This document shows, piece after piece, positions 1,018 to 26,068 of a DNA stretch of 32,000 nucleotides. Where the stretch lies: positions 3,660,001-3,692,000 of the forward strand of contig CP060262.1 of the NCBI GenBank assembly GCA_022646745.1, in the 5' to 3' direction. The position numbers were made by a program, and so were the translations under genes. The notes beneath the pieces are model-generated. The model worked only from the letters and a program-made list of their open reading frames with translations, made no database searches and had not been told where the DNA came from. The DNA comes from Planctomycetales bacterium (GTDB taxonomy: Bacteria; 4484-113; JAFGCY01). The first letter of the stretch is position 1. The number at the start of each line of letters is the position of its first letter.

Positions 1018-1803
1018 TCAGTAGCTCAACTCGAAGTCCACATCATGGGTCAGGTCTACATGGGTGATCCTGAATCCCTTGCCGCCATCCATCTGGCTGT
1101 ATTTGATGTCACCCCTGCTGCCATCAAATGAGTATGCCTTGCCCGTCATGGGATTGATGGTCGTGCTGGACAGGGGTCCGAAACCCTCTTTCACGAGTTG
1201 CTGGATGCTATCCGGATAGTGTCCATTGACATCCAGGAATGCAATCGCTGCATAGCCAAGCTGGCGGATCTGTGCGAACTGGACCAGTTGAGCTTCGTTT
1301 CCCAGCCATTCACGGATTATCTCCTGCTGGCCAGCATTCAGGTCCTGCTCCTTCATCATTTCCGCGAACCGGTCAGCATAGCTGCCCTTGTTCGTGACAA
1401 GCGGACCGTCAACGTCTTCGGTTGATCCGTTCCAGGAGTTGTACAGGCGCAGGTCAGTGATATCTCCTTCAGCCGCAGTGCTTTCTATGTAGATGTCACC
1501 TGAGAAATCAATGCTGGCATCATCCGGATTGATTCTCTCCATTCCGTAACCCAGCAGTACATTGTCAAAAATGCCCTTCTTCGTCACCTCTGACCAGGAT
1601 GCGGGATTGCGGCCGAATGCCAGCTGGAAACCCTCGAGCGCGGCCCGAACCTGGGATTCAGCAATGTCTATCGCCCCACCACGAGTCTTCAGGCCGGGAT
1701 AATCACTTGCATACGTTGTCTCAGCTGACACTGCATTGCCTGCACTGGCAATCAGCATGGCTGCGGCAATTGCCACACCGCTGAGTTGAATCGAGGTCTT
1801 CAT
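1018..1803 (-). CDS. Secreted hypothetical protein (261 aa)
   Basis: The listed ORF 1018..1986 is trimmed to the internal ATG at 1803, which is preceded by GGAAGGAGA (Shine-Dalgarno). That start gives a Sec-type signal peptide, MKTSIQLSGVAIAAAMLIASAGNAVSA. I recognise no enzyme motif. Confidence 0.7.
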   Translation of the reverse strand: MKTSIQLSGVAIAAAMLIASAGNAVSAETTYASDYPGLKTRGGAIDIAESQVRAALEGFQLAFGRNPASWSEVTKKGIFDNVLLGYGMERINPDDASIDFSGDIYIESTAAEGDITDLRLYNSWNGSTEDVDGPLVTNKGSYADRFAEMMKEQDLNAGQQEIIREWLGNEAQLVQFAQIRQLGYAAIAFLDVNGHYPDSIQQLVKEGFGPLSSTTINPMTGKAYSFDGSRGDIKYSQMDGGKGFRITHVDLTHDVDFELSY

Positions 1804-1967
1804 AATCCATTCTCCTTCCGGGGCGCAGCAGCAATTGCGACCGAAACCCTGTATCAGCATTCCGGACGCATATGGTGGTGGATAGTTCGGAATGAAATGA
1901 CAATGGAAAGAAAAAGCCCGGCCATTGTGACCGGGCTCATTTCGTTCAAACAAGTTGTGCTGCCTGA

Positions 1968-3593
1968 TCAGAACAGGAAGCTCCACTCCACAACGTAGTA
2001 GTCATGGTCGGCCTTGAAGTCCGGCACACCGTATCCGAAGGCATTGTGCATCTTGTCCATGATGTAGTTCACGCCGACGAGGCAGTTCGGGGCCCACATG
2101 TAGTCCCAGCGCACGTTGAGCGTGTTGCGGTTGAGCAGCGGGAACTGTGCACCTTCGCGCATCAGGTTGGCACCCATCTGGCGGTAGTGGCCATACAGGC
2201 TCCAGTCGCCGCACTCCTTGCGCCAGGTGCCCCACATCGCGCCGATCAGCAGGCCGTAGTCGTCGCTCGGCTCAGTGATGATCGGGCTGGCCAGTTGCTG
2301 GTTGACAAGTGCGATGTTGTCAGCGGCGTCGCTGTCAATCGCCCACAGGTATTCACCGAAGATGTTCAGCGGACGGTCCCAGACACACTCCCATGTGTAT
2401 TCCAGGCCGACCTTGCCCATGCAGTACTTGCTGGAGAATCGGTCATCGCTGGTGCGCACGCCATCGCCGTTGAAGTCCCATAGGCCGCCGTTCTCCAGCA
2501 GGCCGTTACCCCAGAACCAGTACTCCGGCAGCTCCCCCACGTTGTCATAGGAGTACATGCCGACCCAGGCGTTGAGGCCCTCCACGAGGAAGTCGTCATG
2601 CTTCAGTTCCGTGGCGAAGTAGTAGGTGTCATCACCGAAGAACTGCTCACCGTTCTGCTCGACGAGCACGCTGGCAACGCTGGTGAGCTGGAAGTCATCA
2701 TTGAAGTGATAGGCCAGTCCCAGTCCCTCGAGGTAGAAGTTGTCAGTCATGTATCCCTCGGTCGGGATGTATGACAGGTGTGGGAAGATACCGGCGTAGA
2801 TGTCAAGCTTGGGCTTGCAGGCGTTGGTTGTGGTGCATTCCTCGCAGCAGCCGCACTTGTCCTTGCAGGACGTGGTCTGCTCGTTATACCAGCCGAACCA
2901 GCCCGGACTGTACTTCACATAGGCGCGGTCCAGGTAGATGTCCGGGGACTTGCCATCCTTGCTGCCAAGGTCGTAGGGCAGTGTGAAGATGTTGGTGCCG
3001 TTGTTGGTTGACAGGCGGAAGCCGACCTCCACGCAGTCGCTGATCTTCTGGTTGTAACCCAGCTTGAACATGATGCGCTGGCGGAAGCGCTGGCTGTCGG
3101 CACGGTCATCGGCCTGCCAGCGGTAGCGGAATTCACCGCGCCAGGCCGGACCTGGCTTCAGGCCGGCCACCTTGTCCTCCAGCGAACCGATGCGGTTGGT
3201 GTTGTCCGCCACCGCGCCTTCGAGGTCACTGACCTGGGACTGCAGCGTGTTGATGCTGTTGCCAAGTTCATCGGTGCGAGCATTGATCAGGGCAAGCTGG
3301 TCACTGAACTCAGTGCGCAGGGACTCGGCCATCACCTGGATGTTCTCCGGGCTGCCCTCGCCAACGGTGTCCAGCAGGCGGGCTATCGCCTGTGCGAACT
3401 CATAGCGGGTCAGCGTGCGGTCTCCCTTGAAGAAGCCGTCCGGATAACCCTCAATCACGCCTCGGCTTGTCAGGTAATCGAGCGCGTTGTAGGCCCAGTG
3501 CTCCGTGGAGACGTCATCGTAGGCATCGCCCGCCCAGGCGGTGCCTGCAGAAAGGATCGCTGCTGCCAGCAGCGTTGCCAGAAATACCCTCAT
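1968..3593 (-). CDS. SLH-domain outer-membrane porin (OmpM/Slp-like: SLH domain, coiled coil, beta-barrel)
   Basis: Start trimmed to the ATG at 3593, preceded by AGAGGA, giving signal peptide MRVFLATLLAAAILSAGTAWA. An SLH motif follows (HWAYNALDYLTSRGVIEGYPDGFFKGDRTLTRYEFAQAIARLL). Next is a heptad-like segment (ALINARTDELGNSINTLQSQVSDLEGAVADNTNRIGSLEDKV). The long remainder is rich in aromatic/Gly alternation and ends in ...YYVVEWSFLF, a typical C-terminal Phe for a beta-barrel. Confidence 0.8.
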   Translation of the reverse strand: MRVFLATLLAAAILSAGTAWAGDAYDDVSTEHWAYNALDYLTSRGVIEGYPDGFFKGDRTLTRYEFAQAIARLLDTVGEGSPENIQVMAESLRTEFSDQLALINARTDELGNSINTLQSQVSDLEGAVADNTNRIGSLEDKVAGLKPGPAWRGEFRYRWQADDRADSQRFRQRIMFKLGYNQKISDCVEVGFRLSTNNGTNIFTLPYDLGSKDGKSPDIYLDRAYVKYSPGWFGWYNEQTTSCKDKCGCCEECTTTNACKPKLDIYAGIFPHLSYIPTEGYMTDNFYLEGLGLAYHFNDDFQLTSVASVLVEQNGEQFFGDDTYYFATELKHDDFLVEGLNAWVGMYSYDNVGELPEYWFWGNGLLENGGLWDFNGDGVRTSDDRFSSKYCMGKVGLEYTWECVWDRPLNIFGEYLWAIDSDAADNIALVNQQLASPIITEPSDDYGLLIGAMWGTWRKECGDWSLYGHYRQMGANLMREGAQFPLLNRNTLNVRWDYMWAPNCLVGVNYIMDKMHNAFGYGVPDFKADHDYYVVEWSFLF

Positions 3594-3776
3594 TCCTCTT
3601 TCCCGTAATACGGATTTGCGGATCGGAAGGGCCGGCGATGCAGCAGCATCCCTGCATCTCATCCACTCCCAGCCATTCCTGAAACCCGGCTCCCAGGCCC
3701 GGTAATCCACGGGAGGATTCTAGCACTCGAAGTTCAAAAACTAAATAATGGATTTATCTGAGTATATTGAAGTTGA

Positions 3777-4616
3777 CTATTGCAGATCAGATGCACCTGG
3801 CTGGACTTCAGCAGCTGCGGAATCCTTCTCATCCATGCCGACCCTCGCCAGCTGCGGGTACTCAAGCGACATCTGTTCCAGGAAGCGGTTGCCGGGGCTG
3901 ATGGAACGCATGATCTTTTCGACCAGCGGCTTCGCCTCCGCATGCCTGTCCGGCGTGGTGAGGAAGTCGATCACCAGCACGCGGTTGCCCGCCGGGCCGA
4001 AGTAGACGTAGTGCGAGATGTTGCGAGAAGGTCCATCCTTCTCATACTGGGTCTCACGTTCGAACTCGAAATGCTGGAATATCATCCCGTCGAATTCCAG
4101 CGGATCAGTCCCACCCTTGAATGTCGCGCCGATGCCCTCATAGTCACTGCGGGCACGCGACACGAACTCGGTTACGCTTTCTCCCTCCTGCCGCATCGGC
4201 AGGCTGATCTTCATGTAGTCCAGTTGCTGCTCGTACTGGAACACGACTTGCGAGTCAACGGCATCCTCAAGGAAGCTGTCCCCCATTGGCAGGCTGGTGG
4301 TCCCCATCGGCAGCTTGAGGTCGAAATCGCAGCGGTAGACATCAAGCGGATAGCGCAGTGGCATGGTGCCGTCCGGCTGGGGGGCCATGAAGTCGAGGTA
4401 GTTGGTCGGGATCAGACCCTGGCGGATGGACATCCCTTCCGTGTCATCACCGATGTCCGTCACGACCTGCGGGATGTCCGGCAGTGGCGTGCCGCAGGGT
4501 GCAGGCGAGCGGTCCTGACCGAAGTAGCTGTAGGCTGCCCAGGCACCAACTGCAGTGACAAGCAGTTGCAGCAGCAATCCGCTGCCCTTCCCGGCCTGGC
4601 TCCCTTTATCGCTCAT
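3777..4616 (-). CDS. Membrane-anchored hypothetical protein (279 aa)
   Basis: One N-terminal hydrophobic helix (LLLQLLVTAVGAWAAYSYF) followed by a soluble domain of normal composition. The fully overlapping plus-strand ORF 3780..4637 is R/H/V/D-rich, as expected of an antisense shadow. It lies 21 nt downstream of the 1036-aa gene. Confidence 0.65.
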   Translation of the reverse strand: MSDKGSQAGKGSGLLLQLLVTAVGAWAAYSYFGQDRSPAPCGTPLPDIPQVVTDIGDDTEGMSIRQGLIPTNYLDFMAPQPDGTMPLRYPLDVYRCDFDLKLPMGTTSLPMGDSFLEDAVDSQVVFQYEQQLDYMKISLPMRQEGESVTEFVSRARSDYEGIGATFKGGTDPLEFDGMIFQHFEFERETQYEKDGPSRNISHYVYFGPAGNRVLVIDFLTTPDRHAEAKPLVEKIMRSISPGNRFLEQMSLEYPQLARVGMDEKDSAAAEVQPGASDLQ

Positions 4617-4637: not shown

Positions 4638-7600
4638 TCAGTCCTTATCGGGCCATTCAGGGGCAGCCTGCTCGATGCGGGTCTTGTTGTCATCCGCCAG
4701 ACGCGCCCGACCGCCAATCATCTTCAGCATGCGTGTGTCAATGCTGCGGCTGCGCTTGATTGCGATCACGCGGTCGCGATAGGCACCTGAATGTCCGGCA
4801 TCCAGCTCCAGTGCCATGCTGCAGTATGCAGCTGCCTGCTCATAGTTGCGGGCGCGCAGCAGTTCGTGCCCGAGGCGGGCGTACAGCTCGGCATCGCGGG
4901 CACCGGCATCCACCGCACGGCGCAGCAGCGGCAGGATCTCCTTGTGCTTGCGCTGCTGCTCGTAGATCCGCGCCTTCTCGAGGTAGCTGCTGGCCAGCTT
5001 GCTGTTCAGCTCAATCGCCCGCTCGAAGCAGCTCAAGGCGTAACTGGCCAGGCCCTTGCGCACGTAGGCCACGCCCAGCTGGTGGTGAATGATTGCGAAA
5101 TTGGGGTTGATCTCGAGTGCCTGCTGGAACTGCTCAATGGCCTCATCCAGCTTGCCGTCGTTCAGGTATGTGTCACCCTGCGCGAGGAAGTTGCGCGCCA
5201 GCTGGCCTTTCTTTGAGTGGCTGATGCTCTCATCTGCGAACACGTTGACATTGCCAATGCTCAGCAATACAACGCTGATGGTGCCCTCCAGGCGACGGCG
5301 GATGGCGTCTCCACGGATCAGATCCACGGTCTGGGCCGGATCGCTGGAGCTGGTTGCCAGCTCCTTGATCTCGCTGATGGAGAGCGACTTGCGCAGGCTC
5401 GGACTGAGCAGGATCAGCTGGTCGCCATCCTGCAGTCGTCGCTTGAGCATCTGCAGCCTTGCCCGCTCACCGAAGCCGATGCGCTCGAACACCTCGTCTG
5501 ACAGGGCCTTGCTTTCATCGCCGATCACCTGCTCATCCGGGATCGTCCATTTGTCCTCATTGATGTCAACCAGCTCACCCTTGCTGAGGATCATCACCTG
5601 CGCCTCGCCGCAGTGCTGCAGGTAGAGCGTGTTCTCCTGCACCACTGCCACTGCAGCACTGATGCCCATCTTGCGGGTCTTGGACTGGCCGAAGGCATCA
5701 CGGTAGACCTTCTGGTTGAGGTTCTCCATCACGCCAGTGATGAATTCCTCTGGGCTGTTCTTCTGGAGCAGAGCGAAGTCACGGCTCACTCCGCCAGGAT
5801 GGAACATCAGTTCGCGCAGGTATCCGAGGGCCTTGGTAGCACTCTTGGCGGCGTCTCCCAGCTCCGGACCTTCGCCCACCAGCAGTGCCACCGCACCACG
5901 TGCACGGTTATTGACAGCCGGCAGGCGGATCGCCAGCGTCTCCTCGCTCTTCTCACGGGCGTTCTTGCCGATCATCGACAGTTCGGCGAAGTCGAAGAAC
6001 AGGTTGGGGATCTCCACCTGCTCCTTCTTGTCATAGCCCAGCAGGCGGCTGAGGTCGTCGCGCAGCTCGGCTACGGTCTGGTAGCGCGCCAGCGGCTGCT
6101 TCTCAAGCATCCGGAGCAGTATGTCCTTCACTTCGCTGCTGATCAGGGCCGGTTCGACGCGGGTGGCGGCGGGCACACCAAGGTGGTCGTGGCGGATCTC
6201 GTCCTCGATCTTGAAGCTGAATGGCGCGTGGCCGACCAGCATCTCGAAGAACAGCACCCCCATCTGGTAGATGTCAGTGCGCACGTCGCAATCGACGTCA
6301 CGGATGAACTCAGGCGTTAGGTATTCAGCACCGTTGAAGTTCAGGTTGCCATGGCGCATCAGGAAATCGGCAACCAGGGTGTCGCCAAGCTTCACGGTGC
6401 GCAGGTCGGATGTCAGGAAGACATTGCTGGGCTTGATGCCACCGTGGTAGTGGATCTTGCTGTACTCCAGCGCCTCAAGGGACTTGCAGAGCTGGAACAC
6501 GATGCGGCCCGCGTCGCTGATCGGCAGGGTGCCACGCTTGATCAGCAGCTGCTCCAGGCTGAGCAGGCCGGCTTCCATCGCGATGTAGCCATTCTCAAAA
6601 TGAACGCCGACATCGAAGACATTCAGCAGGTTTTTATGGTGGATGTTCGTCAGGGTGCGGAAACGGGTGTGGAATACCTCGGTGTATTCCTTGTGCTTGC
6701 GCAGGTCAATCAGCTTGACGACGCAGTGCTCCTGGTCCACCGCACTCTTGCGGTCATCCAGCAGTGAGCGCTTCTCCTCCTCGATGCCCATTTCATCCTT
6801 GCGGGTATCAATCGCGCGGTAGATAGAGGAAATGCGGCCCTTGGCAATCTCTTCCTTGAGCTTGAAGCGGCCGTTGATCAGGGTGTCCAGCACGAATGTG
6901 CGGAAGGCCACGCCGCTGTCCTGCTCGCCTCCGAGCTGCAGCACGTCATCGAGCGCCTTCTGGAAGCTCTCGTAGCGATCCTCCAGTGTCGGGCTGAGCA
7001 GGCGGTACAGCAGCTCCTGGATCGGCAGGGGCAGGTGCTCCTGCTCAGCAAGCCGCTTGCGCAGCTCATCGGGATCATTGCGGTCTCCGGCGGGCAGCAC
7101 GTCCCAGCTGCGCCTGGCAGTGGCCAGTTCAAGGATGATCAGGCCCAGCGCATACATGTCAATCTGGGAGTCCTCCAGCCCGCGGTCCATCAGTTCATAG
7201 GGCGGGAAGTAGGCCAGCAGGTGGCTGCCCTCATCGGTCTTGGCCACATCGCCGGCCATGGACTTCAGCGGATAGCCGAAGAAGCCCAGCCGTACATCGC
7301 TTTCCTCAAGCGAGATGCGGATGTTGTCCGGGTGCATCATGCCGTGGAAATGCACGTCGTTTGCGTCGGCAAACACCAGCGCCCGCAGCAGGCTGCGCAT
7401 GATGCTCAGCAGTTCGGGGGACTTGAGCGCTGACAGGTTGGAATAGCTCGAAAGCGGCTTGCCGAAATCCGGCAGCACCAGGTAGGCGCGGTCCTCAAAG
7501 CGGCCCCAGGCCAGCGGCGGCAACACATCCTCATGGTTCTTCTGTGCGAGGATGATGTTGACGCGCTTGAGCTCCTCAAGCTGCTCCGGTTCAAGCATCT

Positions 7601-7748
7601 CCTCGTTAAAGAGGAGGCAGAACACCGCTTCGTGGCTTTCCTTATTGAAGCCGATGTATGTGTCCCACAACACCGAATGCGCCTTGTGGTTGTTGAGCGT
7701 GAAGCGATCTACGGTGAAATTTTGCCGTTCGGCCATCTGTTCCTGCAT
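4638..7748 (-). CDS. Multidomain signalling protein: two Ser/Thr-kinase-like domains with degenerate catalytic motifs, a PP2C-like domain with degenerate metal ligands, and C-terminal TPR repeats
   Basis: Kinase-like domain 1 (about aa 10-275): HGMMHPDN replaces HRDxKPxN, LGFFG replaces DFG, and there is no VAIK Lys or Gly loop, but FPPYE and DMYALGLIILEL are retained. Kinase-like domain 2 (about aa 285-545): VVK Lys345 is present, HGGIKPSN replaces HRDxKPxN, LGDTL replaces DFG, and TPE and DIYQMGVLFFEML are retained. PP2C-like region (about aa 590-835): GKNAREKSEE, VGEGPELGDAAKSA (instead of DGMGG), KMGIS, CGEAQ (instead of GDSR), LILLSPSL (instead of LLCSDGL) and GTISVVLL (instead of DNiT). 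TPR region about aa 850-990 (DEAIEQFQQALEINPNFAIIHHQLGVAY...). Confidence 0.75.
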   Translation of the reverse strand: MQEQMAERQNFTVDRFTLNNHKAHSVLWDTYIGFNKESHEAVFCLLFNEEMLEPEQLEELKRVNIILAQKNHEDVLPPLAWGRFEDRAYLVLPDFGKPLSSYSNLSALKSPELLSIMRSLLRALVFADANDVHFHGMMHPDNIRISLEESDVRLGFFGYPLKSMAGDVAKTDEGSHLLAYFPPYELMDRGLEDSQIDMYALGLIILELATARRSWDVLPAGDRNDPDELRKRLAEQEHLPLPIQELLYRLLSPTLEDRYESFQKALDDVLQLGGEQDSGVAFRTFVLDTLINGRFKLKEEIAKGRISSIYRAIDTRKDEMGIEEEKRSLLDDRKSAVDQEHCVVKLIDLRKHKEYTEVFHTRFRTLTNIHHKNLLNVFDVGVHFENGYIAMEAGLLSLEQLLIKRGTLPISDAGRIVFQLCKSLEALEYSKIHYHGGIKPSNVFLTSDLRTVKLGDTLVADFLMRHGNLNFNGAEYLTPEFIRDVDCDVRTDIYQMGVLFFEMLVGHAPFSFKIEDEIRHDHLGVPAATRVEPALISSEVKDILLRMLEKQPLARYQTVAELRDDLSRLLGYDKKEQVEIPNLFFDFAELSMIGKNAREKSEETLAIRLPAVNNRARGAVALLVGEGPELGDAAKSATKALGYLRELMFHPGGVSRDFALLQKNSPEEFITGVMENLNQKVYRDAFGQSKTRKMGISAAVAVVQENTLYLQHCGEAQVMILSKGELVDINEDKWTIPDEQVIGDESKALSDEVFERIGFGERARLQMLKRRLQDGDQLILLSPSLRKSLSISEIKELATSSSDPAQTVDLIRGDAIRRRLEGTISVVLLSIGNVNVFADESISHSKKGQLARNFLAQGDTYLNDGKLDEAIEQFQQALEINPNFAIIHHQLGVAYVRKGLASYALSCFERAIELNSKLASSYLEKARIYEQQRKHKEILPLLRRAVDAGARDAELYARLGHELLRARNYEQAAAYCSMALELDAGHSGAYRDRVIAIKRSRSIDTRMLKMIGGRARLADDNKTRIEQAAPEWPDKD

Positions 7749-7872: not shown

Positions 7873-9099
7873 TCACTCGTGGCGCAATGCTTCCATCGGC
7901 TGCAGGGCTGCAGCCTGGCTGGCGGGCCAGACCCCGAAGAACAGGCCCGTCCCCACACTCATGGATACGGCCAGGAACACGATCAGGGGCGTCACCTGTG
8001 GTTCAGGGAAGTTGATGTCGCCTGGCAGCTTTGACAGGGCAGTACAGATGGTGAAGGCCAGCATGCTGCCGACTGCCCCGCCGAACACTGTCATCGCCAT
8101 TGCTTCCGCAAGGAATTGCCCCATGATCTGCCGGCTGGTGGCGCCAAGCGCCTTGCGCAGGCCGATCTCGGGCGTTCGTTCACGCACATTGAAGATCATG
8201 ATGTTCATCACCCCGATACCGCCGATGAACAGCGCCAGTGAACCCATCGTTACCAGCAGGTTGCCAATCTCCTTGATCTCCTGCTCGGCTTCCTTCTTCC
8301 ACTCCAGCCTGGTCCAGATCCTGAGCGGCTGCTCACGGTCCTCTGCCTCGGGGTCAACGGGCAGGCGTGGATGGCGGCTGTGCACCAGTTCGCGGATCTG
8401 GCTGACTGCCAGGTTCACATGGTCCATGCTGTGGGCGGATGCATCATAAGTCAGCGTGCCGTCCATTCCCAGCCGCTCCGCACCGGTGAAGTACGGCACG
8501 ACGATGAACTCATTCTGTCCCCAGGCATTGCGGTGCTCAAGGATGCCGACGACGCGGAAGCGCCGGCCGTTTAGCCGGATCATCTGCCCGAGCGGTGGGG
8601 CGTTGTAGAACAGCTTCTCCACCATGCCGACGGCCAGCACGCAGACCGGCTCCCGCAGAAGGTTGTGCTCGCGGCTTAGCGGCTCTCCGGTCTCGATCTC
8701 GTTCACCGGGATGTTGAACCAGCCCTCGTCCACTCCGTAGATCGTCATCTGACCGGCATCCATCTCGCCGAATTTCACCCTGACCTCACCATCGATGAAT
8801 GGGCTGATTGCATCGACCGCAGAGCACTGATCCTTTATCGCCTCGCCATCAGCCAGTGTCAGCTTCTCGGAACGCGGGATGCGCGTGGCACTGTTGTCAT
8901 GGTTGATGTAGAAGCCCATGTCCGTCACGCCGAAATCACTGAAGCGGCTGATGATGTCCGCGCGCACCCCCATGCTGATGGACAGCATGGTGATCACGCT
9001 CATCACGCCGATGATGATCCCAAGCGTTGTCAGGAATGTCCTGAAGCGGTTGCTGGACAATCCACGGAATGCCAGCACCAGAGTCTGCCAGTAGAGCAA
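7873..9099 (-). CDS. ABC transporter permease, MacB/LolC-type (MacB periplasmic domain plus FtsX domain), paralogue 3 of 3
   Basis: TTG start. The N-terminus MLYWQTLVLAFRGLSSNRFRTFLTTLGIIIGV is the typical TM1. A periplasmic domain of about 220 aa follows, then the FtsX signature ERTPEIGLRKALGATSRQIMGQFLAEA and three C-terminal TM segments. No nucleotide-binding domain. Confidence 0.85.
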   Translation of the reverse strand: MLYWQTLVLAFRGLSSNRFRTFLTTLGIIIGVMSVITMLSISMGVRADIISRFSDFGVTDMGFYINHDNSATRIPRSEKLTLADGEAIKDQCSAVDAISPFIDGEVRVKFGEMDAGQMTIYGVDEGWFNIPVNEIETGEPLSREHNLLREPVCVLAVGMVEKLFYNAPPLGQMIRLNGRRFRVVGILEHRNAWGQNEFIVVPYFTGAERLGMDGTLTYDASAHSMDHVNLAVSQIRELVHSRHPRLPVDPEAEDREQPLRIWTRLEWKKEAEQEIKEIGNLLVTMGSLALFIGGIGVMNIMIFNVRERTPEIGLRKALGATSRQIMGQFLAEAMAMTVFGGAVGSMLAFTICTALSKLPGDINFPEPQVTPLIVFLAVSMSVGTGLFFGVWPASQAAALQPMEALRHE

Positions 9100-9188
9100 G
9101 GCCTGAAGTCCTGAGTTGGTTTCCCGCCGCTTCCCGACGGCTGGGGCTTAGGACGCAGACTGGCAGGGAAAAGTATTCGTTTACCGGA

Positions 9189-10418
9189 TTATTCGTAGCG
9201 CAGGGCTTCGATCGGGTTGAGGCGTGCCGCCTGGCTGGCGGGCCAGACACCGAAGAACACGCCGGTCATGAAGGTGACGGCGATGGCGATGATGATCGCA
9301 TCCTGTGTGATCAACGGAGGTGGGAATCGTGCTTCTTCGGGCAGCCTGGCTATCACGCGGCACAGGATGAAGCTCAGTCCTGTTCCGATCAGGCCTCCCC
9401 CGATGCAGATCATCATCGATTCAGCAATGAACTGGGCCAGGATCGACTGGCTGTTGGCACCGAGCGCCTTGCGCAGTCCGATCTCGCGCGTGCGCTCCTT
9501 CACACTGAACAGCATGATGTTCATCAATCCGATGCCACCGATGAACAGTGACAGGCTGCCCATCACGAGCAGCAGTACGGTGATTTGCTTGGACTCAGCC
9601 TTGGCCCGCTCGCGCCATTCATTAAGGTTCCAGACCCGGATCGGCTTCTCGAACTCCTCAGCATCGGCCACCACCGGGATGCGCGGATGGTTCTTGTAGA
9701 TCGTCTCCTCGACCTGCGTCACAGCCAATGGTACGTGCCTCAGTGTCTGGGCCGCCATCTGGATTCCGAGTGACTGGTTCTGGCGCGGGATCCACTCATG
9801 CACAGTAAAGAATGGCAGCAGCACCAGGCCGTCGATGTCCTCCTCGCCGGTGCTTTCCAGCACGCCGATCACCCGGAAGTTCCTGCCGCCGACGCGAATG
9901 ATGCGGCCGAGTGCCTGGTCAAGGAAGAACAGGTTCTCCTTCGTAGTTGCGCCAAGCACGCAGACGCGCTCGCGCAGCAGGCTGCTTTCATCCGGGAAGC
10001 GCTCGCCCTCGGTGAAGTTGATCTTGTAGATGTCGAATATCTCGGGGTCGACTCCCATGCAGTTGACTTCGGTCAGTTCCTTGCTGCCCTGGCGCACCGG
10101 TGCCTGGAAGTCGATCACTGCGCTGACATGCTTCACGGCACCGCATTCACGGCGGATGCTGTCGCGGTCCTCCAGGGTCAGCTGCTCATTCGGCGGGATC
10201 TTCGCCTTGGAGCGCCAGTGGTTGATGTAGACGCCCATGCGGGTGGCACCGAGCTTGTCAAAGTCGTCAATGATCTTCTGGTTCAGGCCCTGGGTGACCG
10301 CCACCAGCGTGATCACGCTGGCAACGCCGACGATGATGCCGAACATTGTCAGGAACGTGCGGAAGCGGTTGGCCCACATGCCACGCACCGCAACCGTGAT
10401 GATTTCCAAGATGAGCAT
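9189..10418 (-). CDS. ABC transporter permease, MacB/LolC-type, paralogue 2 of 3
   Basis: ATG start. Same architecture: MLILEIITVAVRGMWANRFRTFLTMFGIIVGV ... ERTREIGLRKALGANSQSILAQFIAES. It starts 30 nt downstream of the previous permease gene. Confidence 0.85.
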   Translation of the reverse strand: MLILEIITVAVRGMWANRFRTFLTMFGIIVGVASVITLVAVTQGLNQKIIDDFDKLGATRMGVYINHWRSKAKIPPNEQLTLEDRDSIRRECGAVKHVSAVIDFQAPVRQGSKELTEVNCMGVDPEIFDIYKINFTEGERFPDESSLLRERVCVLGATTKENLFFLDQALGRIIRVGGRNFRVIGVLESTGEEDIDGLVLLPFFTVHEWIPRQNQSLGIQMAAQTLRHVPLAVTQVEETIYKNHPRIPVVADAEEFEKPIRVWNLNEWRERAKAESKQITVLLLVMGSLSLFIGGIGLMNIMLFSVKERTREIGLRKALGANSQSILAQFIAESMMICIGGGLIGTGLSFILCRVIARLPEEARFPPPLITQDAIIIAIAVTFMTGVFFGVWPASQAARLNPIEALRYE

Positions 10419-10448
10419 TTTCCAAGCTGTACCGGTCCGCCGGTGACC

Positions 10449-11687
10449 CTACTGGAAGCGCAGCGCCCGGATTGGATCCTGGCCGGCTGCCCTCATAGCA
10501 GGATAGACGCCGAAGAACAGGCCGATTGCTACGGTTACACTCGCAGCAACGAAAATTGCCATTGGCGTGACGATCGGGGGCGGGATCTGGCTTTCCTCAG
10601 GCAGGCGTGCGATCATCCGGCAGGCCAGCACAGCGATGCCAGTCCCTATCAGGCCTCCCAGCATGCAGATCACGATCGACTCCAGCAGGAACTGGTTCAT
10701 CACACTGGAGAATGTGGCACCCAGCGCCTTGCGCAGGCCGATCTCACGGGTGCGTTCCTGCACAGTCACGAGCATGATGTTCATCACGCCGACACCGCCG
10801 ATCAGGAGCGAGGTGAAGCCGACCACCCCGAGGAAGATCGTCAGGGTACGGGCGGATTCCTCACGCCGGGCCTGCCACTCCGCGGCATTCCAGAAGCGGA
10901 ACGGTTCGGTCTGGCCCTTGGCCTCATCCGGCAGCGGCACGCGGGGATGACGTTCGTGCAGCAGACGGCGCACCTCCTCCTCTGCGCGCTCGCTCATGGA
11001 GGGGTCATGCAGGCGGAAGTTCAGTGAGCCGATGCCGTTAACGCCGCTGACACGGTCCATCGCCGTGCCGATGGGGATCAGCACCCGTTCGTCATGCGAT
11101 TCCCAGCGACTGTTGCCGACGGGCTTGTATGTGCCGACCACCTTGAAGCGCTTGCCGTCAATGGTGATGAACTCATCCACCGCCGGAGCACTGAAGAAGA
11201 GTGCTTCCTTCGTCATGCTGGCCAGAACGCAGACACGTTCACGCATCAGGTTCTCGTCATCTGTGAAGAAACGTCCCTGGTCTATCTGGTAGTTGGAAAT
11301 TTCAGTCCAGTCAGGCTCGATGGCAATCACGCTGTAGGCGTCAAGCTCGATCGTATTGCGCGAGACATTGGCTTCGAGTTCCTGGATCGCGCTGACCTTG
11401 TCAATGCTAGGACAGGAGGCGCGGATCGCGGCGGTGTCATCGAGGGTGAAGCTCTCAGTCTGCGGAATCGGCACGCCACTGCTCCAGCGGTCCATCCAGC
11501 AGCCCATCCGGTTGGCGCCCCAGCGCTCGAAATCCTTCAGCATGTCCTCGCGGGTGCCGGCACTGTATGCCAAAAGCACGATCACGCTGCCCACACCGAC
11601 GATGATGCCGAGCATCGTCAGCCCGGTACGCAGCTTGTTGGCGACAATGCCGCGGATGGCTACAACGATGATCTCCCAGAACAGCAA
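10449..11687 (-). CDS. ABC transporter permease, MacB/LolC-type, paralogue 1 of 3
   Basis: TTG start, 10 nt after the stop of the adaptor gene. MLFWEIIVVAIRGIVANKLRTGLTMLGIIVGV ... ERTREIGLRKALGATFSSVMNQFLLES. Confidence 0.85.
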   Translation of the reverse strand: MLFWEIIVVAIRGIVANKLRTGLTMLGIIVGVGSVIVLLAYSAGTREDMLKDFERWGANRMGCWMDRWSSGVPIPQTESFTLDDTAAIRASCPSIDKVSAIQELEANVSRNTIELDAYSVIAIEPDWTEISNYQIDQGRFFTDDENLMRERVCVLASMTKEALFFSAPAVDEFITIDGKRFKVVGTYKPVGNSRWESHDERVLIPIGTAMDRVSGVNGIGSLNFRLHDPSMSERAEEEVRRLLHERHPRVPLPDEAKGQTEPFRFWNAAEWQARREESARTLTIFLGVVGFTSLLIGGVGVMNIMLVTVQERTREIGLRKALGATFSSVMNQFLLESIVICMLGGLIGTGIAVLACRMIARLPEESQIPPPIVTPMAIFVAASVTVAIGLFFGVYPAMRAAGQDPIRALRFQ

Positions 11688-11697
11688 TTGCTACCGC

Positions 11698-13155
11698 CTA
11701 TTCAATGGTTCTCTCAAGCACCACGGTGTCACCTTCCTCGAGCCCGTTCGTCACCTCATAACGCAGGCCGTCGAAGAAGCCCAGCTCGATGTCAACACGC
11801 TCGCGAACGTCGGTGCTGTCGGCATCAGCGGACACCTCGACGTAGGGCTTGCCTTCCTCATACTGGATGTACTGTGCCGGCAGGATCAGCACTGCGGGAT
11901 GGTCCTCCAGCACGATCTCAACGTTCGCCGTCATGTTCGGATACAGGCGCGGTTTCTGCGGCTCAGGCTTTGCCTCTTCCGCAGGCTTTTCCTCTCCTGC
12001 TGCATCACCGGCGGGCGGGCCTCCCTGGCCTCCACCTCCGCCGCCGGGCCGGCGCCCTGCACCGCCCCCGCCACCGCCACCACCGCGACGGCCACCCCAG
12101 TTGCCTCCTCCACCGCCGCCCATGCGGCCGCCGAAGCCTCCGCCTTCCATCGTGGCGCTGTTGAGGTCAATTGCGATGTCAACCGGGAAGCGGGTGCCGG
12201 TATTGCCACCGCCGGTCTCGCCCTGTGGGTAGATCTTCTTGATCTCGCCCTGCCAGACCCAGCCGGAATAGGTGTCAAACGTGATCCGGCAGGGGCCACC
12301 TACCTTGATGGTGCCGAGGTCTGTCTCCTCAATGCGGGCCTTGACGTAGATCGTTGACAGGTCGGCAACCGTGGCAATCACGGTGCCGGATGTGTTACCG
12401 GATGTCGCACTGGCAACCGCCGAGCCGATCTCAACCGGACGGGTCAGCACGGTGCCACTTTGCGGGCTGGTGATGGTGGTGTAGCCAAGTTCTTCCTTGA
12501 GTCGGTCCGTATCGGCCTGACTGGCTTCCACGTCCGCTTCGGCAATGGCGATGTCGTCAACGTCACCACCTTCAAGACCCATCTGCAGCTGGCGCTGTGA
12601 CTCTTCATAACGCAGCTTGGCCTGGTCCAGGCTCTGTTCCGCGGACTGCATCTCCGCATCCGTCGCATACTTCGGTTCATGCTCATACAGGCCGAGGATG
12701 CGGTCATAGTCGCTCTGGGCATTTTCAAAGCTGAGACGGGCGCTTTCGACATCATTCTCCAGCCGGCTGCGGGCCTCGACCGTCAGCTTGCGCTTCGTCT
12801 TCTTCAGCTGTGCCTGCGAACGCAGCAGGCGGGCCTCGCTTTCCTTGATGCTCTGGACGATCTGCTCCTTGTCCAGCTCGGCAATCGGCGTACCCATTGT
12901 CACCTCGTCACCTGGTTCAACGAAGATCGCTTCGACCAGGCCGCTGGCCTTGCTCTTCACCTCGACAAGTACGGAAGGTTCAACGACTCCGTCCGCCGGC
13001 ACGATCTTGCGCAGGTCACCGCGCGTAACTGCCGTTGTCTGGATGTCGGTTTCGACCTCCTCGGGGGCAAACAGCGGTGAGATGAACTTCCAGGCCAGGA
13101 AGCCAAGGCCGCCGATCACGACGAGGTTGATAGCAATTCGGATGAAGGTTTTCAT
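11698..13155 (-). CDS. Periplasmic adaptor (HlyD/MacA-type membrane fusion protein) with an internal Gly/Arg-rich low-complexity insertion
   Basis: N-terminal TM anchor (IAINLVVIGGLGFLAW). Lipoyl-like segments (GLVEAIFVEPGDEVTMGTPIAELD ... ITSPQSGTVL). A long coiled-coil hairpin (EARLLRSQAQLKK...RYEESQRQLQ). Beta-barrel segment (YVKARIEETDLGTIKVGGPCRITFD). The insertion is GGGFGGRMGGGGGGNWGGRRGGGGGGGGAGRRPGGGGGGQGGPPAGDAAGEEKPAEEAKPEPQKP. Confidence 0.8.
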   Translation of the reverse strand: MKTFIRIAINLVVIGGLGFLAWKFISPLFAPEEVETDIQTTAVTRGDLRKIVPADGVVEPSVLVEVKSKASGLVEAIFVEPGDEVTMGTPIAELDKEQIVQSIKESEARLLRSQAQLKKTKRKLTVEARSRLENDVESARLSFENAQSDYDRILGLYEHEPKYATDAEMQSAEQSLDQAKLRYEESQRQLQMGLEGGDVDDIAIAEADVEASQADTDRLKEELGYTTITSPQSGTVLTRPVEIGSAVASATSGNTSGTVIATVADLSTIYVKARIEETDLGTIKVGGPCRITFDTYSGWVWQGEIKKIYPQGETGGGNTGTRFPVDIAIDLNSATMEGGGFGGRMGGGGGGNWGGRRGGGGGGGGAGRRPGGGGGGQGGPPAGDAAGEEKPAEEAKPEPQKPRLYPNMTANVEIVLEDHPAVLILPAQYIQYEEGKPYVEVSADADSTDVRERVDIELGFFDGLRYEVTNGLEEGDTVVLERTIE

Positions 13156-13684: not shown

Positions 13685-13713
13685 TTGCCCTGTGCACAAT
13701 CTGGAAGTATCAT
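13685..13713 (+). promoter_or_regulatory. Candidate promoter for the aldolase gene: TTGCCC-N17-TATCAT
   Basis: TTGCCC at 13685-13690, a 17-nt spacer, TATCAT at 13708-13713. The RBS GGAGGAG and the ATG at 13742 follow. Confidence 0.4.
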
Positions 13714-13741
13714 TGCGCTACTTTTCTCCATGGAGGAGACA

Positions 13742-14650
13742 ATGTCAGGCTTCTACAAACGGCCGAAACTCTCTGAACTCGACAAGCCGCTCGGCAAGCG
13801 GGTGCGGCTGCACCGCATGCTGTACGAACACGGCCCCGGCAACGGCACGCTCCTGATCCTCCCGCTGGACCAGGGCATTGAGCATGGCCCGATGGACTTC
13901 TTCAGCCATGAGGACTGCAAGTTCCCGGCCTACCAGTTCGAGCTGGCCCGCCGCGGGGGCTTCAGCGCGATTGCCGTGCATATCGGGCTGGCCCGCAACT
14001 ACCTGCGTGAAGTGGCAGGCGACGTGCCGCTGGTGCTGAAGATCAACGGCAAGTCCAACATCCCTGACAACGAGCCATTCTCCCCGCTGACAGCCACTGT
14101 GGAGGATGCCGTCCATCTCGGCGCTGACGGCATCGGCTATACGTTGTATGTCGGCAGCGGGATGCAGGAGGAGGAGATCCGCCAGCTGATGGAGGTGCGC
14201 CAGGACTGCGACCGCTTTGGCATGCCGCTGATCATCTGGGCATACCCGCGTGGTGAGGCGATCGAGCAGAAGGGTGGCCGCGACAGCTTCTACGCTGTTG
14301 ACTACGGGGCTCGCCTCGCCGAGGAATTCGGTGCGGACATCGTCAAGCTGCACATCCCGAAGATCAACCCGGCAACGGATGCCATGTCCCCTGCCCCCTA
14401 CAACAACATGCAGGTTGACCAGCTCGGTGCCTTCCGCCAGATCGTGCAGAGTGCCGGCCGGGCCTTCGTGCTGGTCAGTGGCGGCAGCAAGCTCGGAGAT
14501 GACGACATGCTGGCCAAGGTCCGCATGAGCTTCGAAGGTGGCGCCACCGGCCTGATCTTTGGCCGCAACATGTGGCAGCGCCCGATGGAGCAGGCACTGG
14601 AGATCACCGAGAAGGTGAAGGACATCATGCGCGAGTTCGGCGACCGTTGA
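13742..14650 (+). CDS. Class I fructose-bisphosphate aldolase, DhnA/FbaB (archaeal-type, DeoC/LacD superfamily) family
   Basis: Trimmed to the ATG at 13742, which sits 5 nt after GGAGGAG. Family-like segments: LILPLDQGIEHGP, VLKINGKSN, GADGIGYTLYVGS, IIWAYPRG, ADIVKLHIP (candidate Schiff-base Lys), VLVSGGSK and GLIFGRNMWQ. Confidence 0.7.
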   Translation: MSGFYKRPKLSELDKPLGKRVRLHRMLYEHGPGNGTLLILPLDQGIEHGPMDFFSHEDCKFPAYQFELARRGGFSAIAVHIGLARNYLREVAGDVPLVLKINGKSNIPDNEPFSPLTATVEDAVHLGADGIGYTLYVGSGMQEEEIRQLMEVRQDCDRFGMPLIIWAYPRGEAIEQKGGRDSFYAVDYGARLAEEFGADIVKLHIPKINPATDAMSPAPYNNMQVDQLGAFRQIVQSAGRAFVLVSGGSKLGDDDMLAKVRMSFEGGATGLIFGRNMWQRPMEQALEITEKVKDIMREFGDR

Positions 14651-14692
14651 GAATGCCGGGAGAGCTGATCCCGGACAGCACATGAATTGAAG

Positions 14693-14720
14693 AGGCTCCC
14701 TGCGGGGAGCCTTTTTCATT
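14693..14720 (+). terminator. Intrinsic terminator of the aldolase gene
   Basis: AGGCTCCC-TGCG-GGGAGCCT (8-bp stem) followed by TTTTTCATTT. Confidence 0.8.
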
Positions 14721-14737
14721 TGTGGCGACGTCCAGGT

Positions 14738-14767
14738 AAAAAAAACCCCCGGCCCATGGGCCGGGGG
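14738..14767 (-). terminator. Intrinsic terminator of the pilin-like gene cluster
   Basis: On the minus strand, CCCCCGGCCCATGGGCCGGGGG (GC-rich stem of about 9-10 bp) is followed by T8. A second hairpin, CTGCAGC-GAAT-GCTGCAG, lies at 14784-14801 between the stop codon (14815) and this terminator. Confidence 0.85.
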
Positions 14768-14814
14768 AGTTTCAGGCACTGTCCTGCAGCGAATGCTGCA
14801 GTCCTCAGCGGTGA

Positions 14815-15837
14815 TTAGACCGCATCGTTGACATCGTCGGTCATGGACTTCTTGTCGATACCAGAGTCCAGGACGATCACGACGCCATCCTTGAGGGTGT
14901 CAGAACCACCATCATTGAAGTCCAGGGACACGGCGTTGCCGGTGTTGCACAGGCACTCGACGTCCCAGCCGAAGATCGGCGTGGCGCAGTCAATGACGCA
15001 GGAGTTCGTACGGAAACGACCCTTGAAGTCACCGTTACGGTTGTACACGTCCTGACCCTTGGTGCGGACGGAACCATAGCCGGAGAGGCTGTAGCCGACC
15101 GGGTCACCGGAACCGGTGATCGGGAAGGCGATGTTGGTGCCGGCGCGCGGGTAGTAGCTGAAGTTACCGGTCAGGAACTTGTTACCACTCGGGTCGGTCC
15201 AGTCGCCACCGACGTTGCTGGGCTCCTTGAACATGTCACCGGCGTAGTCGTACGGCGGGTTGTTGTAGATGTGGTGGACGAATGCGTCACCCATGAAGGA
15301 CTGAACAGTGATCAGTCCTGCGGGGCCGAAGCACTCCCACATCTTGTCGCTCTGGCGACCACCGACGTAGCGCTGGTCGGGATAGTTACCACCAGCAGAC
15401 CACGGGAAGTGATGGATGAAGGGCAGGATGGTGTCGGTTTTGTTCTTGACGAACGGGTTGCCGGGGTAGGAAGGCATGTAGGCCTCCATCACCAGCGGGT
15501 CACCGACATCCTCTTCCGCGGCACGCCACTCGTTGCGGCGGGTCGGGTTGGAGATATCATCGACGCTCAGGTTGTCCTGATCGTCGACCCAGCTCTGCCA
15601 GACGACATCCTGGTCAGTCCAGTCACCACCGTTGATGATCAGCGGGTAGATGTTACCGGCTGAGTCAACGGAATAACGCTCGAGTGCAAGCTGAATAGCG
15701 TGCAGGTTCTGCTTAACCTCTGCTTCCTTCGCCTTATCCTTGATGCGGATGAAGTTCGGAAGGGCAATCGCCACGAGGATACCGATGATCACGATGACCA
15801 CCAGCAGCTCGATCAGAGTGAATCCTCTCTTTGTCAT
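14815..15837 (-). CDS. Large pilin-like protein P1: prepilin-type N-terminal cleavage/methylation motif, GspG-like helix and a C-terminal domain of about 290 aa
   Basis: ATG at 15837, 5 nt after GGAGGA. MTKRGFTLIELLVVIVIIGILVAIALPNFIRIKDKAKEAEVKQNLHAIQLALERY is a class III signal peptide (G|FTLIE with Glu+5). It shares the motifs YMPSYPGNPF, GYSLSGYGSVRTKGQD and a C-terminal DG..V.VLDSGIDKK with P2-P4, but it is the most divergent copy. Confidence 0.85.
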   Translation of the reverse strand: MTKRGFTLIELLVVIVIIGILVAIALPNFIRIKDKAKEAEVKQNLHAIQLALERYSVDSAGNIYPLIINGGDWTDQDVVWQSWVDDQDNLSVDDISNPTRRNEWRAAEEDVGDPLVMEAYMPSYPGNPFVKNKTDTILPFIHHFPWSAGGNYPDQRYVGGRQSDKMWECFGPAGLITVQSFMGDAFVHHIYNNPPYDYAGDMFKEPSNVGGDWTDPSGNKFLTGNFSYYPRAGTNIAFPITGSGDPVGYSLSGYGSVRTKGQDVYNRNGDFKGRFRTNSCVIDCATPIFGWDVECLCNTGNAVSLDFNDGGSDTLKDGVVIVLDSGIDKKSMTDDVNDAV

Positions 15838-15899
15838 AGCATCCTCCATAGATGATCCGAAACCAATTGACTTGACATCTAACCCGAAATCAAGGCAGG

Positions 15900-16964
15900 T
15901 CAGCCGGCAAGACTGTTGTCGCTGCCGACCTTCTTGTCCATGCCAGATCCGAGATGGATGATGAGGAAGTCAGGGATACCATCCGAGAAGGGACGCTCAT
16001 CATAGTCATCGACCTGGGTGGTGTTACCCCACATACCCGAGGTGGTCCAGGGGTTGCGCTCCTGGCCAAGGGTGAGGTAACCGGTACGCCAGTACTGGGC
16101 ACCAACCGAGTCCTCCATGCTGTCGTCAAGGTCCTGGCCCTTCGTGCGCTCGGAACCGAGGGCAGTCAGGTCGTAACCGGCGACATCAAGGCTTGCCACG
16201 TTCTGGACGTCAGCGTTGCCAAGCGGCGGAGTCATCTCCGGCGGCATGGAAGTGGCGTCGCTGTGATAAGGCACCTGATACAGGAAGTGGCCGTGGTTGG
16301 TGGTCTCATCGCTCCAACGAGCGTGATAGGCGAAGTTACCCTGATACTCAGTGCGGACCGGCTCGTAATCCGGGGCGCTGAAGAACATGTACTGCGGGCC
16401 CTCAGAGAACCACGCGATGTTCCACATCAGGTCTCCATCGTAACCGCCGAAGCAGGCATGATCCTGGTAGTTGGTGGACAGAGCGTCGATACCAAACACC
16501 TTGCTGGAGCTGCCGACCTGGAAGGGGTTACGGGGGAACTTCGGCATGTAACCCTCGTACTCAAGGGTGTCGCCGAAGCCGGAATCAATGTCAGTCTGCT
16601 GGGTCAGGTTACCCCACGCAGTGTCATTGTAATCCCATGTGTCAGTGTTCAGCCAGAACATGTCGAACGGCTGCACAATCTGGCCGGTCGTGTAGGCACG
16701 CCACGTATGCGAGCCGTTCACGCCGTTGATGGTACCGATGTTGAACAGGGACTCACCGCCGTACAGGTAGTAGGGGTAAATACCGTCATAATCGGTAGCG
16801 TAGCGCTCAATCGCCAGCTGGATCGCATGAAGGTTCTGCTTAACCTCCGCCTCACGAGCCTTATCCTTGATCTTGATAAAGTTCGGGAGCGCGATAGCGA
16901 CCAGGATGCCGATAATCACGACTACGACTAGAAGTTCGATCAGCGTGAAGCCTTTAGTCTTCAA
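15900..16964 (-). CDS. Large pilin-like protein P2 (354 aa)
   Basis: TTG start, 8 nt after AGGAGG. MKTKGFTLIELLVVVVIIGILVAIALPNFIKIKDKAREAEVKQNLHAIQLAIERYATD. Conserved blocks: YPYYLYGGE, IVQPFD, GYMPKFPRNPF, CFGG, VAGYDLTALGSERTKGQD and ERPFSDGIPDFLIIHLGSGMDKK. Confidence 0.85.
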   Translation of the reverse strand: MKTKGFTLIELLVVVVIIGILVAIALPNFIKIKDKAREAEVKQNLHAIQLAIERYATDYDGIYPYYLYGGESLFNIGTINGVNGSHTWRAYTTGQIVQPFDMFWLNTDTWDYNDTAWGNLTQQTDIDSGFGDTLEYEGYMPKFPRNPFQVGSSSKVFGIDALSTNYQDHACFGGYDGDLMWNIAWFSEGPQYMFFSAPDYEPVRTEYQGNFAYHARWSDETTNHGHFLYQVPYHSDATSMPPEMTPPLGNADVQNVASLDVAGYDLTALGSERTKGQDLDDSMEDSVGAQYWRTGYLTLGQERNPWTTSGMWGNTTQVDDYDERPFSDGIPDFLIIHLGSGMDKKVGSDNSLAG

Positions 16965-20951: not shown

Positions 20952-20989
20952 CTGCTCTCCCCTGTCCTGCCACAAGGCAGGCAGGTCAA

Positions 20990-24925: not shown

Positions 24926-25003
24926 CTGGGCCTGACCCGACGTGTCATTGCCGCCCTGTGCGGCTTGTTTCTGCTCATCTATAATTAACGGGATCAATCC
25001 ATC

Positions 25004-26068
<1,065 letters not shown>

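Follow-up and report, generated by a model that had tools for sequence, protein, structure and literature searches.

The 32,000-nucleotide (nt) window analyzed here (Planctomycetales bacterium, assembly GCA_022646745.1, contig CP060262.1, positions 3,660,001–3,692,000) contains, at 4638–7748 on the minus strand (stop codon included), an open reading frame (ORF) for a protein of 1036 amino acids (aa) that combines two Hanks-type kinase folds, a PP2C-like phosphatase fold, and a C-terminal array of tetratricopeptide repeats (TPRs). The residues at its catalytic positions indicate that this protein is most likely a pseudoenzyme scaffold outside any described family. The first kinase domain (KD1) has lost everything, and the second (KD2) has kept exactly the ATP and metal ligands; this contrast within one chain offers a test of what selection preserves. 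A preliminary description of this DNA had called all three domains catalytically dead. The catalytic base is indeed lost in both kinase folds, but the statement is too strong for KD2. The reading favored here, with modest confidence and on the basis of sequence, is a soluble cytoplasmic protein that would signal by binding and without catalysis, as a scaffold or a switch. Pseudokinases and pseudophosphatases are established regulators in eukaryotes and are almost unstudied in bacteria, and the protein provides a clean natural case: a phosphatase fold and a kinase fold with its probable duplicate have all been stripped of catalysis, yet purifying selection on each is as strong as on housekeeping proteins.

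The ORF proposed in the preliminary description is real. Its strand had not been stated; it is the minus strand, the plus-strand reading of 4638–7748 having been rejected for stop codons throughout the frame. All of the motifs quoted in that description were found at the residue numbers given there: HGMMHPDN (135–142), FPPYE (181–185), and DMYALG (197–202) in KD1; HGGIKPSN (435–442), (L)TPE (477–480), and DIYQMG (492–497) in KD2; and GEGPE (625–629), GEAQ (714–717), SPSL (782–785), and (E)GTIS (821–825) in the PP2C-like domain. Pfam assigns Pkinase (PF00069) twice (E 3.5e-31, 109 bits against a cut-off of 31.7), plus TPR, and a Foldseek search with the full-length AlphaFold model also returned kinases. 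The two Hanks-type folds recognized by eye are further confirmed by matches to Aurora for KD1 and to StkP/PknB for KD2. No transmembrane segment or signal peptide is evident in the protein, and no NTPase, nuclease, or other effector domain was detected in its 1036 aa by Pfam (for NTPase, also by NCBIfam). The G + C content of the gene is 60.3%, compared with 59.4% for the window. An identical protein at NCBI is labeled "MAG: protein kinase [Planctomycetales bacterium]" (MAG, metagenome-assembled genome), and its length of 1032 aa places the start at Met5. There are thus two candidate starts at window 7737–7748 (minus strand), with GAGGGCGG located 10–17 nt 5′ of the upstream ATG that begins the 1036-aa form. 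The public label is probably wrong in the functional sense.

KD1 (aa 8–275; window 6924–7727, minus strand) aligns to Aurora B/C (E 1.6e-08) and is modeled by AlphaFold with a predicted local distance difference test score (pLDDT) of about 87. Its β3 Lys position is occupied by L46, the αC Glu position by V63, and the catalytic-loop Lys position by H139. The HRD motif reads H135-G-M, with M137 in place of the Asp, and lies in the degenerate catalytic loop HGMMHPDN (window 7323–7346, minus strand), while the DFG triplet is F156-F157-G158. A catalytic census was made of 34 sequences, comprising the near orthologs and four divergent members. In this census, the β3 Lys position is Leu in 19 sequences and Val in 10, the HRD Asp position is Ser in 19, Met in four, Phe in three, and other residues elsewhere, but never Asp, and the DFG Asp position is Phe in 21 and Leu in nine. 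None of the four key positions holds the Lys, Glu, or Asp of a competent kinase in any of these sequences, and the catalytic-loop Asn that is present in the query (N142) occurs in only 21 of the 34. The absence of the VAIK Lys and the catalytic Asp noted in the preliminary description is borne out by both the Aurora alignment and the census; the "GFF" that it gave for the DFG motif was one residue out of register. Judged by these aligned residues, KD1 is a completely degraded pseudokinase, dead at its canonical positions. One family member only (P0018) carries a variable, low-confidence insertion of about 35 residues in the KD1 activation segment (aa about 190–225).

KD2 (aa 289–572; window 6033–6884, minus strand) has StkP, Stk1, and PknB as its best PDB matches (E 3e-23 for StkP). 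Its losses differ from those of KD1. The HRD motif reads H435-G-G within the catalytic loop HGGIKPSN (window 6423–6446, minus strand), and the αC Glu is replaced by R362. Across the census, the HRD Asp position is Ala in 23 sequences, Gly in seven, and Val in four, and the αC Glu position is Arg in 29, Lys in three, and Thr and Tyr in one each; neither position is that of a competent kinase. In contrast, the β3 Lys (K345), the catalytic-loop Lys (K439) and Asn (N442), and the DFG Asp (D456) are retained. Of these, K345, N442, and D456 are present in 34/34 sequences, down to 37% identity, as expected for ATP and metal ligands, such that nucleotide binding by KD2 is plausible. The DFG position reads D-[AT]-L across the family, and the Gly-rich loop is degraded (A302-K-G-R-I-S in the query; A-[KR]-G-R-[IV]-S in the family). 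For this domain, the preliminary description was right about the lost catalytic Asp and wrong about a lost DFG Asp, and the Gly-rich loop that it found missing from both kinase domains is still recognizable in KD2. The profile alignment that it had suggested as a check returned a conserved Lys and DFG Asp in KD2 and none in KD1. A variable, acidic/basic insertion of about 23 residues was observed between β2 and β3 of KD2 (aa 317–339, window about 6732–6800, minus strand; low confidence) in the closest relatives of the query and in P0017.

KD1 and KD2 are homologous to each other (hhalign probability 99.1%, 19% identity). Because both read "H-G" in the catalytic loop, a KD2-like domain in which the Arg and Asp of HRD were already gone was probably duplicated internally to give KD1.

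The retained ligands raise the question of whether KD2 is still an enzyme, either as a weak kinase that works without the HRD base or through another ATP-dependent reaction on the kinase fold. Kinase activity without the HRD base has been reported for JAK2 JH2 and HER3, and SelO and SidJ catalyze different ATP-dependent reactions on this fold. According to a 2025 review, SidJ is a polyglutamylase, and ATP may be bound in unconventional ways by bacterial "pseudokinases" that retain partial motifs (PMC12599244). The conservation of K345, N442, D456, and K439, which are invariant or nearly so, is what selection for ATP-Mg binding would produce, and weak or atypical activity may be compatible with the three invariant residues. 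However, neither Asp nor Glu occupies the HRD position or an adjacent one in any of the 34 sequences, Arg or Lys stands in place of the αC Glu, 32/34 sequences lack the first Gly of the Gly-rich loop, and no Ser or Thr is conserved in the activation segment. Catalysis by KD2 is consequently regarded as unlikely, and a non-catalytic role for the protein is preferred.

For the PP2C-like domain (aa 576–840; window 5229–6023, minus strand), a single sequence gives a Pfam PP2C score (14.3 bits) below the gathering score (20.3 bits). NCBIfam Stp1_PP2C matches aa 661–829 (E 5.8e-11), and a family profile built from the alignment of aa 572–848 matches Staphylococcus aureus Stp1 in PDB (E 3e-07). Single-sequence phmmer against PDB and hhalign against PstP alone were set aside, as only the central part was aligned. 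Because such narrower alignments missed the N- and C-terminal motifs, a profile of 41 sequences was needed, which combined distant PP2C matches with Mycobacterium tuberculosis PstP (sequence identical to PDB 2cm1_A). Global hhalign of the family against this profile gave a probability of 99.9% (E 4.9e-33). The AlphaFold model of the domain slice has a mean pLDDT of 70 (80–95 in the core, with poor termini), and every one of the 50 best Foldseek matches listed is a PP2C-fold phosphatase (probability 1.0, TM-score 0.52–0.70), including PppA, tPphA, Stp1, PstP, PPM1K, and ABI1/HAB1. By these profile comparisons, the PP2C homology is firm once the family profile is used.

In the profile alignment, motif I of PstP is preserved. 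The phosphate-contacting Arg (R20) corresponds to R598 (Arg in 32 and Lys in two of the 34 sequences), and the acidic pair E24/D25 corresponds to E602/E603 (E602 in 34/34, E603 in 31/34); G39 is likewise kept as G625. The three Asp of the binuclear metal center are gone in the query: D38 is V624 (Val in 21 sequences, Ile in six, and Asp in 0/34), D191 is P783 (a variable position, Asp in 5/34), and D229 is G822 (Gly in 34/34). D118 corresponds to E715 and is variable. The claim that the PP2C fold was kept while its metal-binding acidic residues were replaced is therefore supported by the profile alignment and the census. At the first metal site, the earlier register (GEGPE) was one residue off, the position of D38 being V624, but the statement that no Asp is present there still holds. 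Two features are additional to the losses. Immediately ahead of the lost D229, the loop sequence is R817-R818-R819-L-E, with R817–R819 invariant in 34/34 sequences, and an 8-residue insertion relative to the PP2C profile (aa 610–617) lies in the β2–β3 hairpin.

The C-terminal TPR array (aa 844–1012; window 4713–5219, minus strand) is supported by Pfam matches above threshold (TPR_1, TPR_2, TPR_8, and TPR_11), by matches to consensus TPR proteins (E 1e-57), and by AlphaFold. The preliminary description had placed three TPR-like repeats at the end of the protein. The repeats are indeed TPRs, and Pfam also calls three, whereas the model contains about five helical hairpins (4–5) with pLDDT 85–92.

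The family defined by this architecture is sharply delimited. A word-indexed search returned the identical protein and 29 further full-length orthologs with 56–84% identity, after which the score falls from 1251 to 88 bits. An exhaustive HMMER scan of 1.84 billion representative proteins with the profile of the PP2C-like domain yielded only about six clusters of full-length proteins and some fragments, followed by a drop from 263 to 63 bits at the boundary with ordinary PP2Cs. These include four divergent clusters (P0042–P0045) that share 37–40% identity with the query and have the same architecture, and the PP2C-like domain was found in no other architecture among the proteins scanned. When one genome from each of 185,579 species was searched, the family was present in eight species representatives, all of which are MAGs titled "bacterium" or "Planctomycetales bacterium." All family members are from one uncultured lineage, whose habitats appear to include wastewater sludge, judging by the isolate name of one MAG. 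No active precursor architecture was seen among the kinase relatives next in score that were examined (P0032, P0035, and P0039), which are single kinases with TPRs. Of the nearest PP2C relatives, eight long multi-domain proteins were checked, and none has a kinase fusion; these carry zinc ribbons or nothing else.

Because the census pattern holds across all 34 sequences, the degenerate catalytic state is, on this evidence, ancestral to the family and maintained, and is not a quirk of a single sequence. The possibility that the gene is a decaying relic, or that its "dead" residues are an artifact of alignment, was evaluated because the Pfam PP2C score is below its gathering threshold and because two by-eye alignments had each slipped by one residue. 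However, dN/dS (the ratio of nonsynonymous to synonymous substitution rates; Nei–Gojobori method) between the window and three relatives is 0.00–0.155 in every one of the four modules in all three pairwise comparisons. These values indicate that the four modules are under strong purifying selection and exclude decay. Moreover, more than 30 genomes preserve an uninterrupted reading frame, and independent profile alignments place non-acidic residues at the lost catalytic positions across the family. Together, these results refute the relic or artifact explanation, which retains virtually no probability.

Comparison with known systems supports the view of the preliminary description that this is not a described architecture, as no family with two kinase folds, a PP2C-like domain, and TPRs was found in the literature searched. 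A 2025 review names seven bacterial pseudokinase families, namely ActPs1–3, GLW, CP1, DYD, and DLHK, reported from actinobacteria, firmicutes, cyanobacteria, and proteobacteria, essentially none of which has a known function; a term search of that review did not turn up PP2C, TPR, or tandem domains (PMC12599244). As summarized there, ActPs, GLW, and CP1 resemble KD1 in that all three catalytic motifs are degraded, and DYD and DLHK resemble KD2 in keeping part of the ATP/metal machinery (PMC12599244). The defining patterns of DYD, DLHK, and CP1, however, do not fit the protein described here. DYD proteins are membrane-associated and have Arg in place of the β3 Lys and a DYD motif, whereas KD2 has Lys, D-[AT]-L, and no transmembrane segment. 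DLHK proteins keep the HRD Asp and have a degraded β3 Lys and DFG, which is the reverse of KD2, and KD1 has none of these residues. CP1 is described as always linked to a COG3899 ATPase domain, and no such domain was detected in the 1036 aa by Pfam or NCBIfam. ActPs1–3 and GLW appear to be mainly actinobacterial, judging by their names.

A parallel in layout is provided by single Hanks-type kinases fused to TPRs. The M. tuberculosis PknG is a Hanks-type Ser/Thr kinase with a C-terminal TPR. P0032, P0035, and P0039 are similarly soluble proteins of about 1000 aa in which a Hanks fold is followed by TPRs, as in the 1036-aa protein. However, these proteins have one kinase domain with a far stronger Pkinase match (E 1e-47 to 1e-54), and neither a second kinase domain nor a PP2C domain was detected in them; the 1036-aa protein has two kinase folds without the HRD Asp plus the PP2C-like domain. 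In the JH2–JH1 pair of JAKs and in plant tandem kinase proteins, a pseudokinase controls an active kinase within one chain, and JAK2 JH2 is an ATP-binding pseudokinase that lacks the HRD Asp and also reads "HG." These proteins pair a dead domain with a live one, whereas both kinase folds lack the catalytic base here, such that any regulated kinase would be a separate protein.

For the phosphatase fold, human TAB1 is a PP2C-fold pseudophosphatase. PHLPP2 is described as another (PMC12002173). Both resemble the domain described here in combining a PPM/PP2C fold with a metal site that has diverged, in not being expected to act as phosphatases, and in serving as a binding or regulatory module in kinase signaling; they differ in being eukaryotic and in showing no specific sequence relationship to it, and they are not known to be fused to kinase folds. 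The best structural and profile matches are active enzymes (PstP, Stp1, tPphA, and PppA) that share the motif-I Arg, the acidic pair, and the GD turn. Active bacterial PP2Cs have D38, D191, and D229, whereas the family has Val or Ile, a variable residue, and Gly at these positions, plus the 8-residue insertion. The family is further set apart by the Arg triplet next to the lost Asp, which is specific to it.

These features are consistent with a protein that signals by binding, and the preliminary suggestion of an allosteric scaffold or sensor stands in its non-catalytic part; the tie that it drew to the adjacent pump and envelope genes is weak. KD2 would bind nucleotide, probably together with metal, by way of the invariant Lys, Asn, and Asp, and by analogy with other ATP-binding pseudokinases this binding may switch its conformation. 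In the PP2C-like domain, the pocket that once held the metals, now presumably lined by R598 and the invariant R817–R819, may accommodate an anion, for example a phosphorylated stretch of a protein, and leave it unhydrolyzed. Partners would dock on the TPR array and KD1. An extended form of this proposal, offered as a tentative possibility, is that the protein would be the first PP2C-fold pseudophosphatase from a bacterium and the first naturally occurring fusion of pseudokinases with a pseudophosphatase. A kinase/phosphatase pair would have been turned into a reader, with KD2 sensing nucleotide state, the Arg pocket clamping a phosphorylated partner without hydrolysis, and the TPR array and KD1 assembling the complex.

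Several points weigh against the binding role. The case for nucleotide binding by KD2 comes down to three invariant residues in a domain whose Gly-rich loop is degraded and whose N-lobe is poorly modeled (AlphaFold pLDDT 35–60), and the putative anion pocket is deduced from the position of the Arg residues in the sequence beside lost ligands, in a domain whose first and last strands have low confidence when it is modeled in isolation. The domain arrangement also lacks a confident prediction. The full-length AlphaFold model has a predicted template-modeling score (pTM) of 0.40, which was considered too low for the arrangement to be used. Finally, the only recurrent neighbor of the gene, a downstream gene for a 279-aa protein, encodes a short and unconserved tail and is missing from the contigs of the divergent members.

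This downstream gene (3777–4616, minus strand) starts 21 nt after the stop codon of the 1036-aa ORF and is followed by a gene for an SLH-domain porin. Its product carries a hydrophobic anchor at the N-terminus, a domain of about 240 aa that lacks annotation, and a cytoplasmic tail of about 13 residues that is not conserved. Homologs are found in the same lineage only, all of them unannotated, and PADLOC returned nothing for this gene. Upstream on the same strand (7873–13155) are a gene for a membrane fusion protein (MFP) and three MacB-type permease genes. A scan for promoters and terminators gave counts at the level of the shuffled control. The order of MFP, one to three MacB permeases, the kinase/PP2C-like gene, and the 279-aa homolog is found in 10 of 12 sequenced places including the window, and a further place for which no DNA was available has the same gene order as judged by length and Pfam. 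Across the syntenic places, the 279-aa gene starts 21–60 nt past the stop codon.

This recurrent order speaks for the idea, put forward in the preliminary description, that the 1036-aa protein is a regulator or sensor of an adjacent envelope module comprising the MFP and MacB permeases, the 279-aa protein, and the SLH porin. The permeases also lack an accompanying ABC ATPase gene: none is present in the 32-kb window, and the gene tables of four syntenic places list none among their called genes. However, genes far outside the cluster (those for N_methyl proteins, DeoC, LplA, a deacetylase, and an M42 peptidase) also keep their order, such that the linkage looks like general synteny of a narrow clade. 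In two loci, an ApbE gene on the opposite strand lies between the pump and the 1036-aa gene. Both neighbors, the pump and the 279-aa gene, are missing in the near relatives L002/L012 and L011 and in L014 and L015, the two divergent members whose contigs extend far enough to be judged; the other two divergent members have neither neighbor on their 4-kb contigs. Genes adjoining the divergent members instead encode AlaRS and MutS2, DMRL synthase and an rRNA methylase, or a Rce1-like protease. The short, unconserved cytoplasmic tail of the 279-aa protein also argues against a regulatory contact. The co-occurrence proposed as a check recurs in the near subclade, apart from two near relatives, and fails in the two divergent members that could be judged. 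The position between a pump locus and envelope proteins was correctly described for the near subclade, but a functional link is weakly supported; it reflects the synteny of a narrow subclade and a lineage-specific operon at most. The 279-aa gene is likely an operon partner only in the near subclade, and regulation of the envelope module is considered improbable.

The genomic context also bears on whether the protein could be an immune decoy or sensor, comparable to plant tandem kinase–pseudokinase resistance proteins or to anti-phage kinase systems. A tandem kinase architecture is typical of decoy receptors, and the kinase domains match the defense-system kinase models PD-T4-6, mad6, and MkoA. 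These matches reflect generic kinase similarity (PADLOC and NCBIfam), and no model matched over its full length. Moreover, the near-clade gene occupies a conserved housekeeping position and not a variable island, the flanking genes of the divergent relatives (AlaRS, MutS2, DMRL synthase, and rRNA methylase) give the same picture, and the Pfam search that detected no nuclease, NTPase, or other effector domain also argues against this role. An immune function is accordingly very unlikely, and the non-catalytic binding protein remains the preferred interpretation.

Several other features of the window were observed. The upstream locus at 7873–13155 (minus strand) is operon-like, with a HlyD/MFP gene and three paralogous MacB_PCD + FtsX permeases of 408–412 aa, and the copy number of the MacB-type permease varies from one to three between relatives. 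Downstream, the SLH-domain protein (1968–3710, minus strand, 580 aa) has a Porin_5 match, a combination that corresponds to the outer-membrane anchor type of some diderm lineages; two such porins are in tandem in L001. It is followed by a 322-aa protein without a Pfam match (1018–1986, minus strand).

Further upstream, a DeoC/LacD-family aldolase gene (13685–14650, plus strand; E 2e-41) is real, whereas the 344-aa ORF antisense to it (13745–14779, minus strand) has tblastn matches in relatives because it shadows this conserved gene. The antisense ORF is a trap for ORF-based annotation. Two adjacent paralogs of about 350 aa (14815–16964, minus strand) have an N-terminal prepilin-type N_methyl motif and no other recognized domain, and the pair is kept in syntenic loci. 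The remaining genes of interest encode a GAF + HD (HD_5) protein, possibly an HD-GYP-type signaling phosphodiesterase (19743–20975, minus strand), a LarA-like lactate racemase homolog (21442–22725, minus strand), and a 631-aa ORF without a Pfam match (24143–26038, minus strand). Finally, a 1014-aa GH101 endo-α-N-acetylgalactosaminidase with accessory domains (27558–30602, plus strand; E 2e-119) belongs to a family that cleaves O-glycans, which is a notable content for an environmental MAG.

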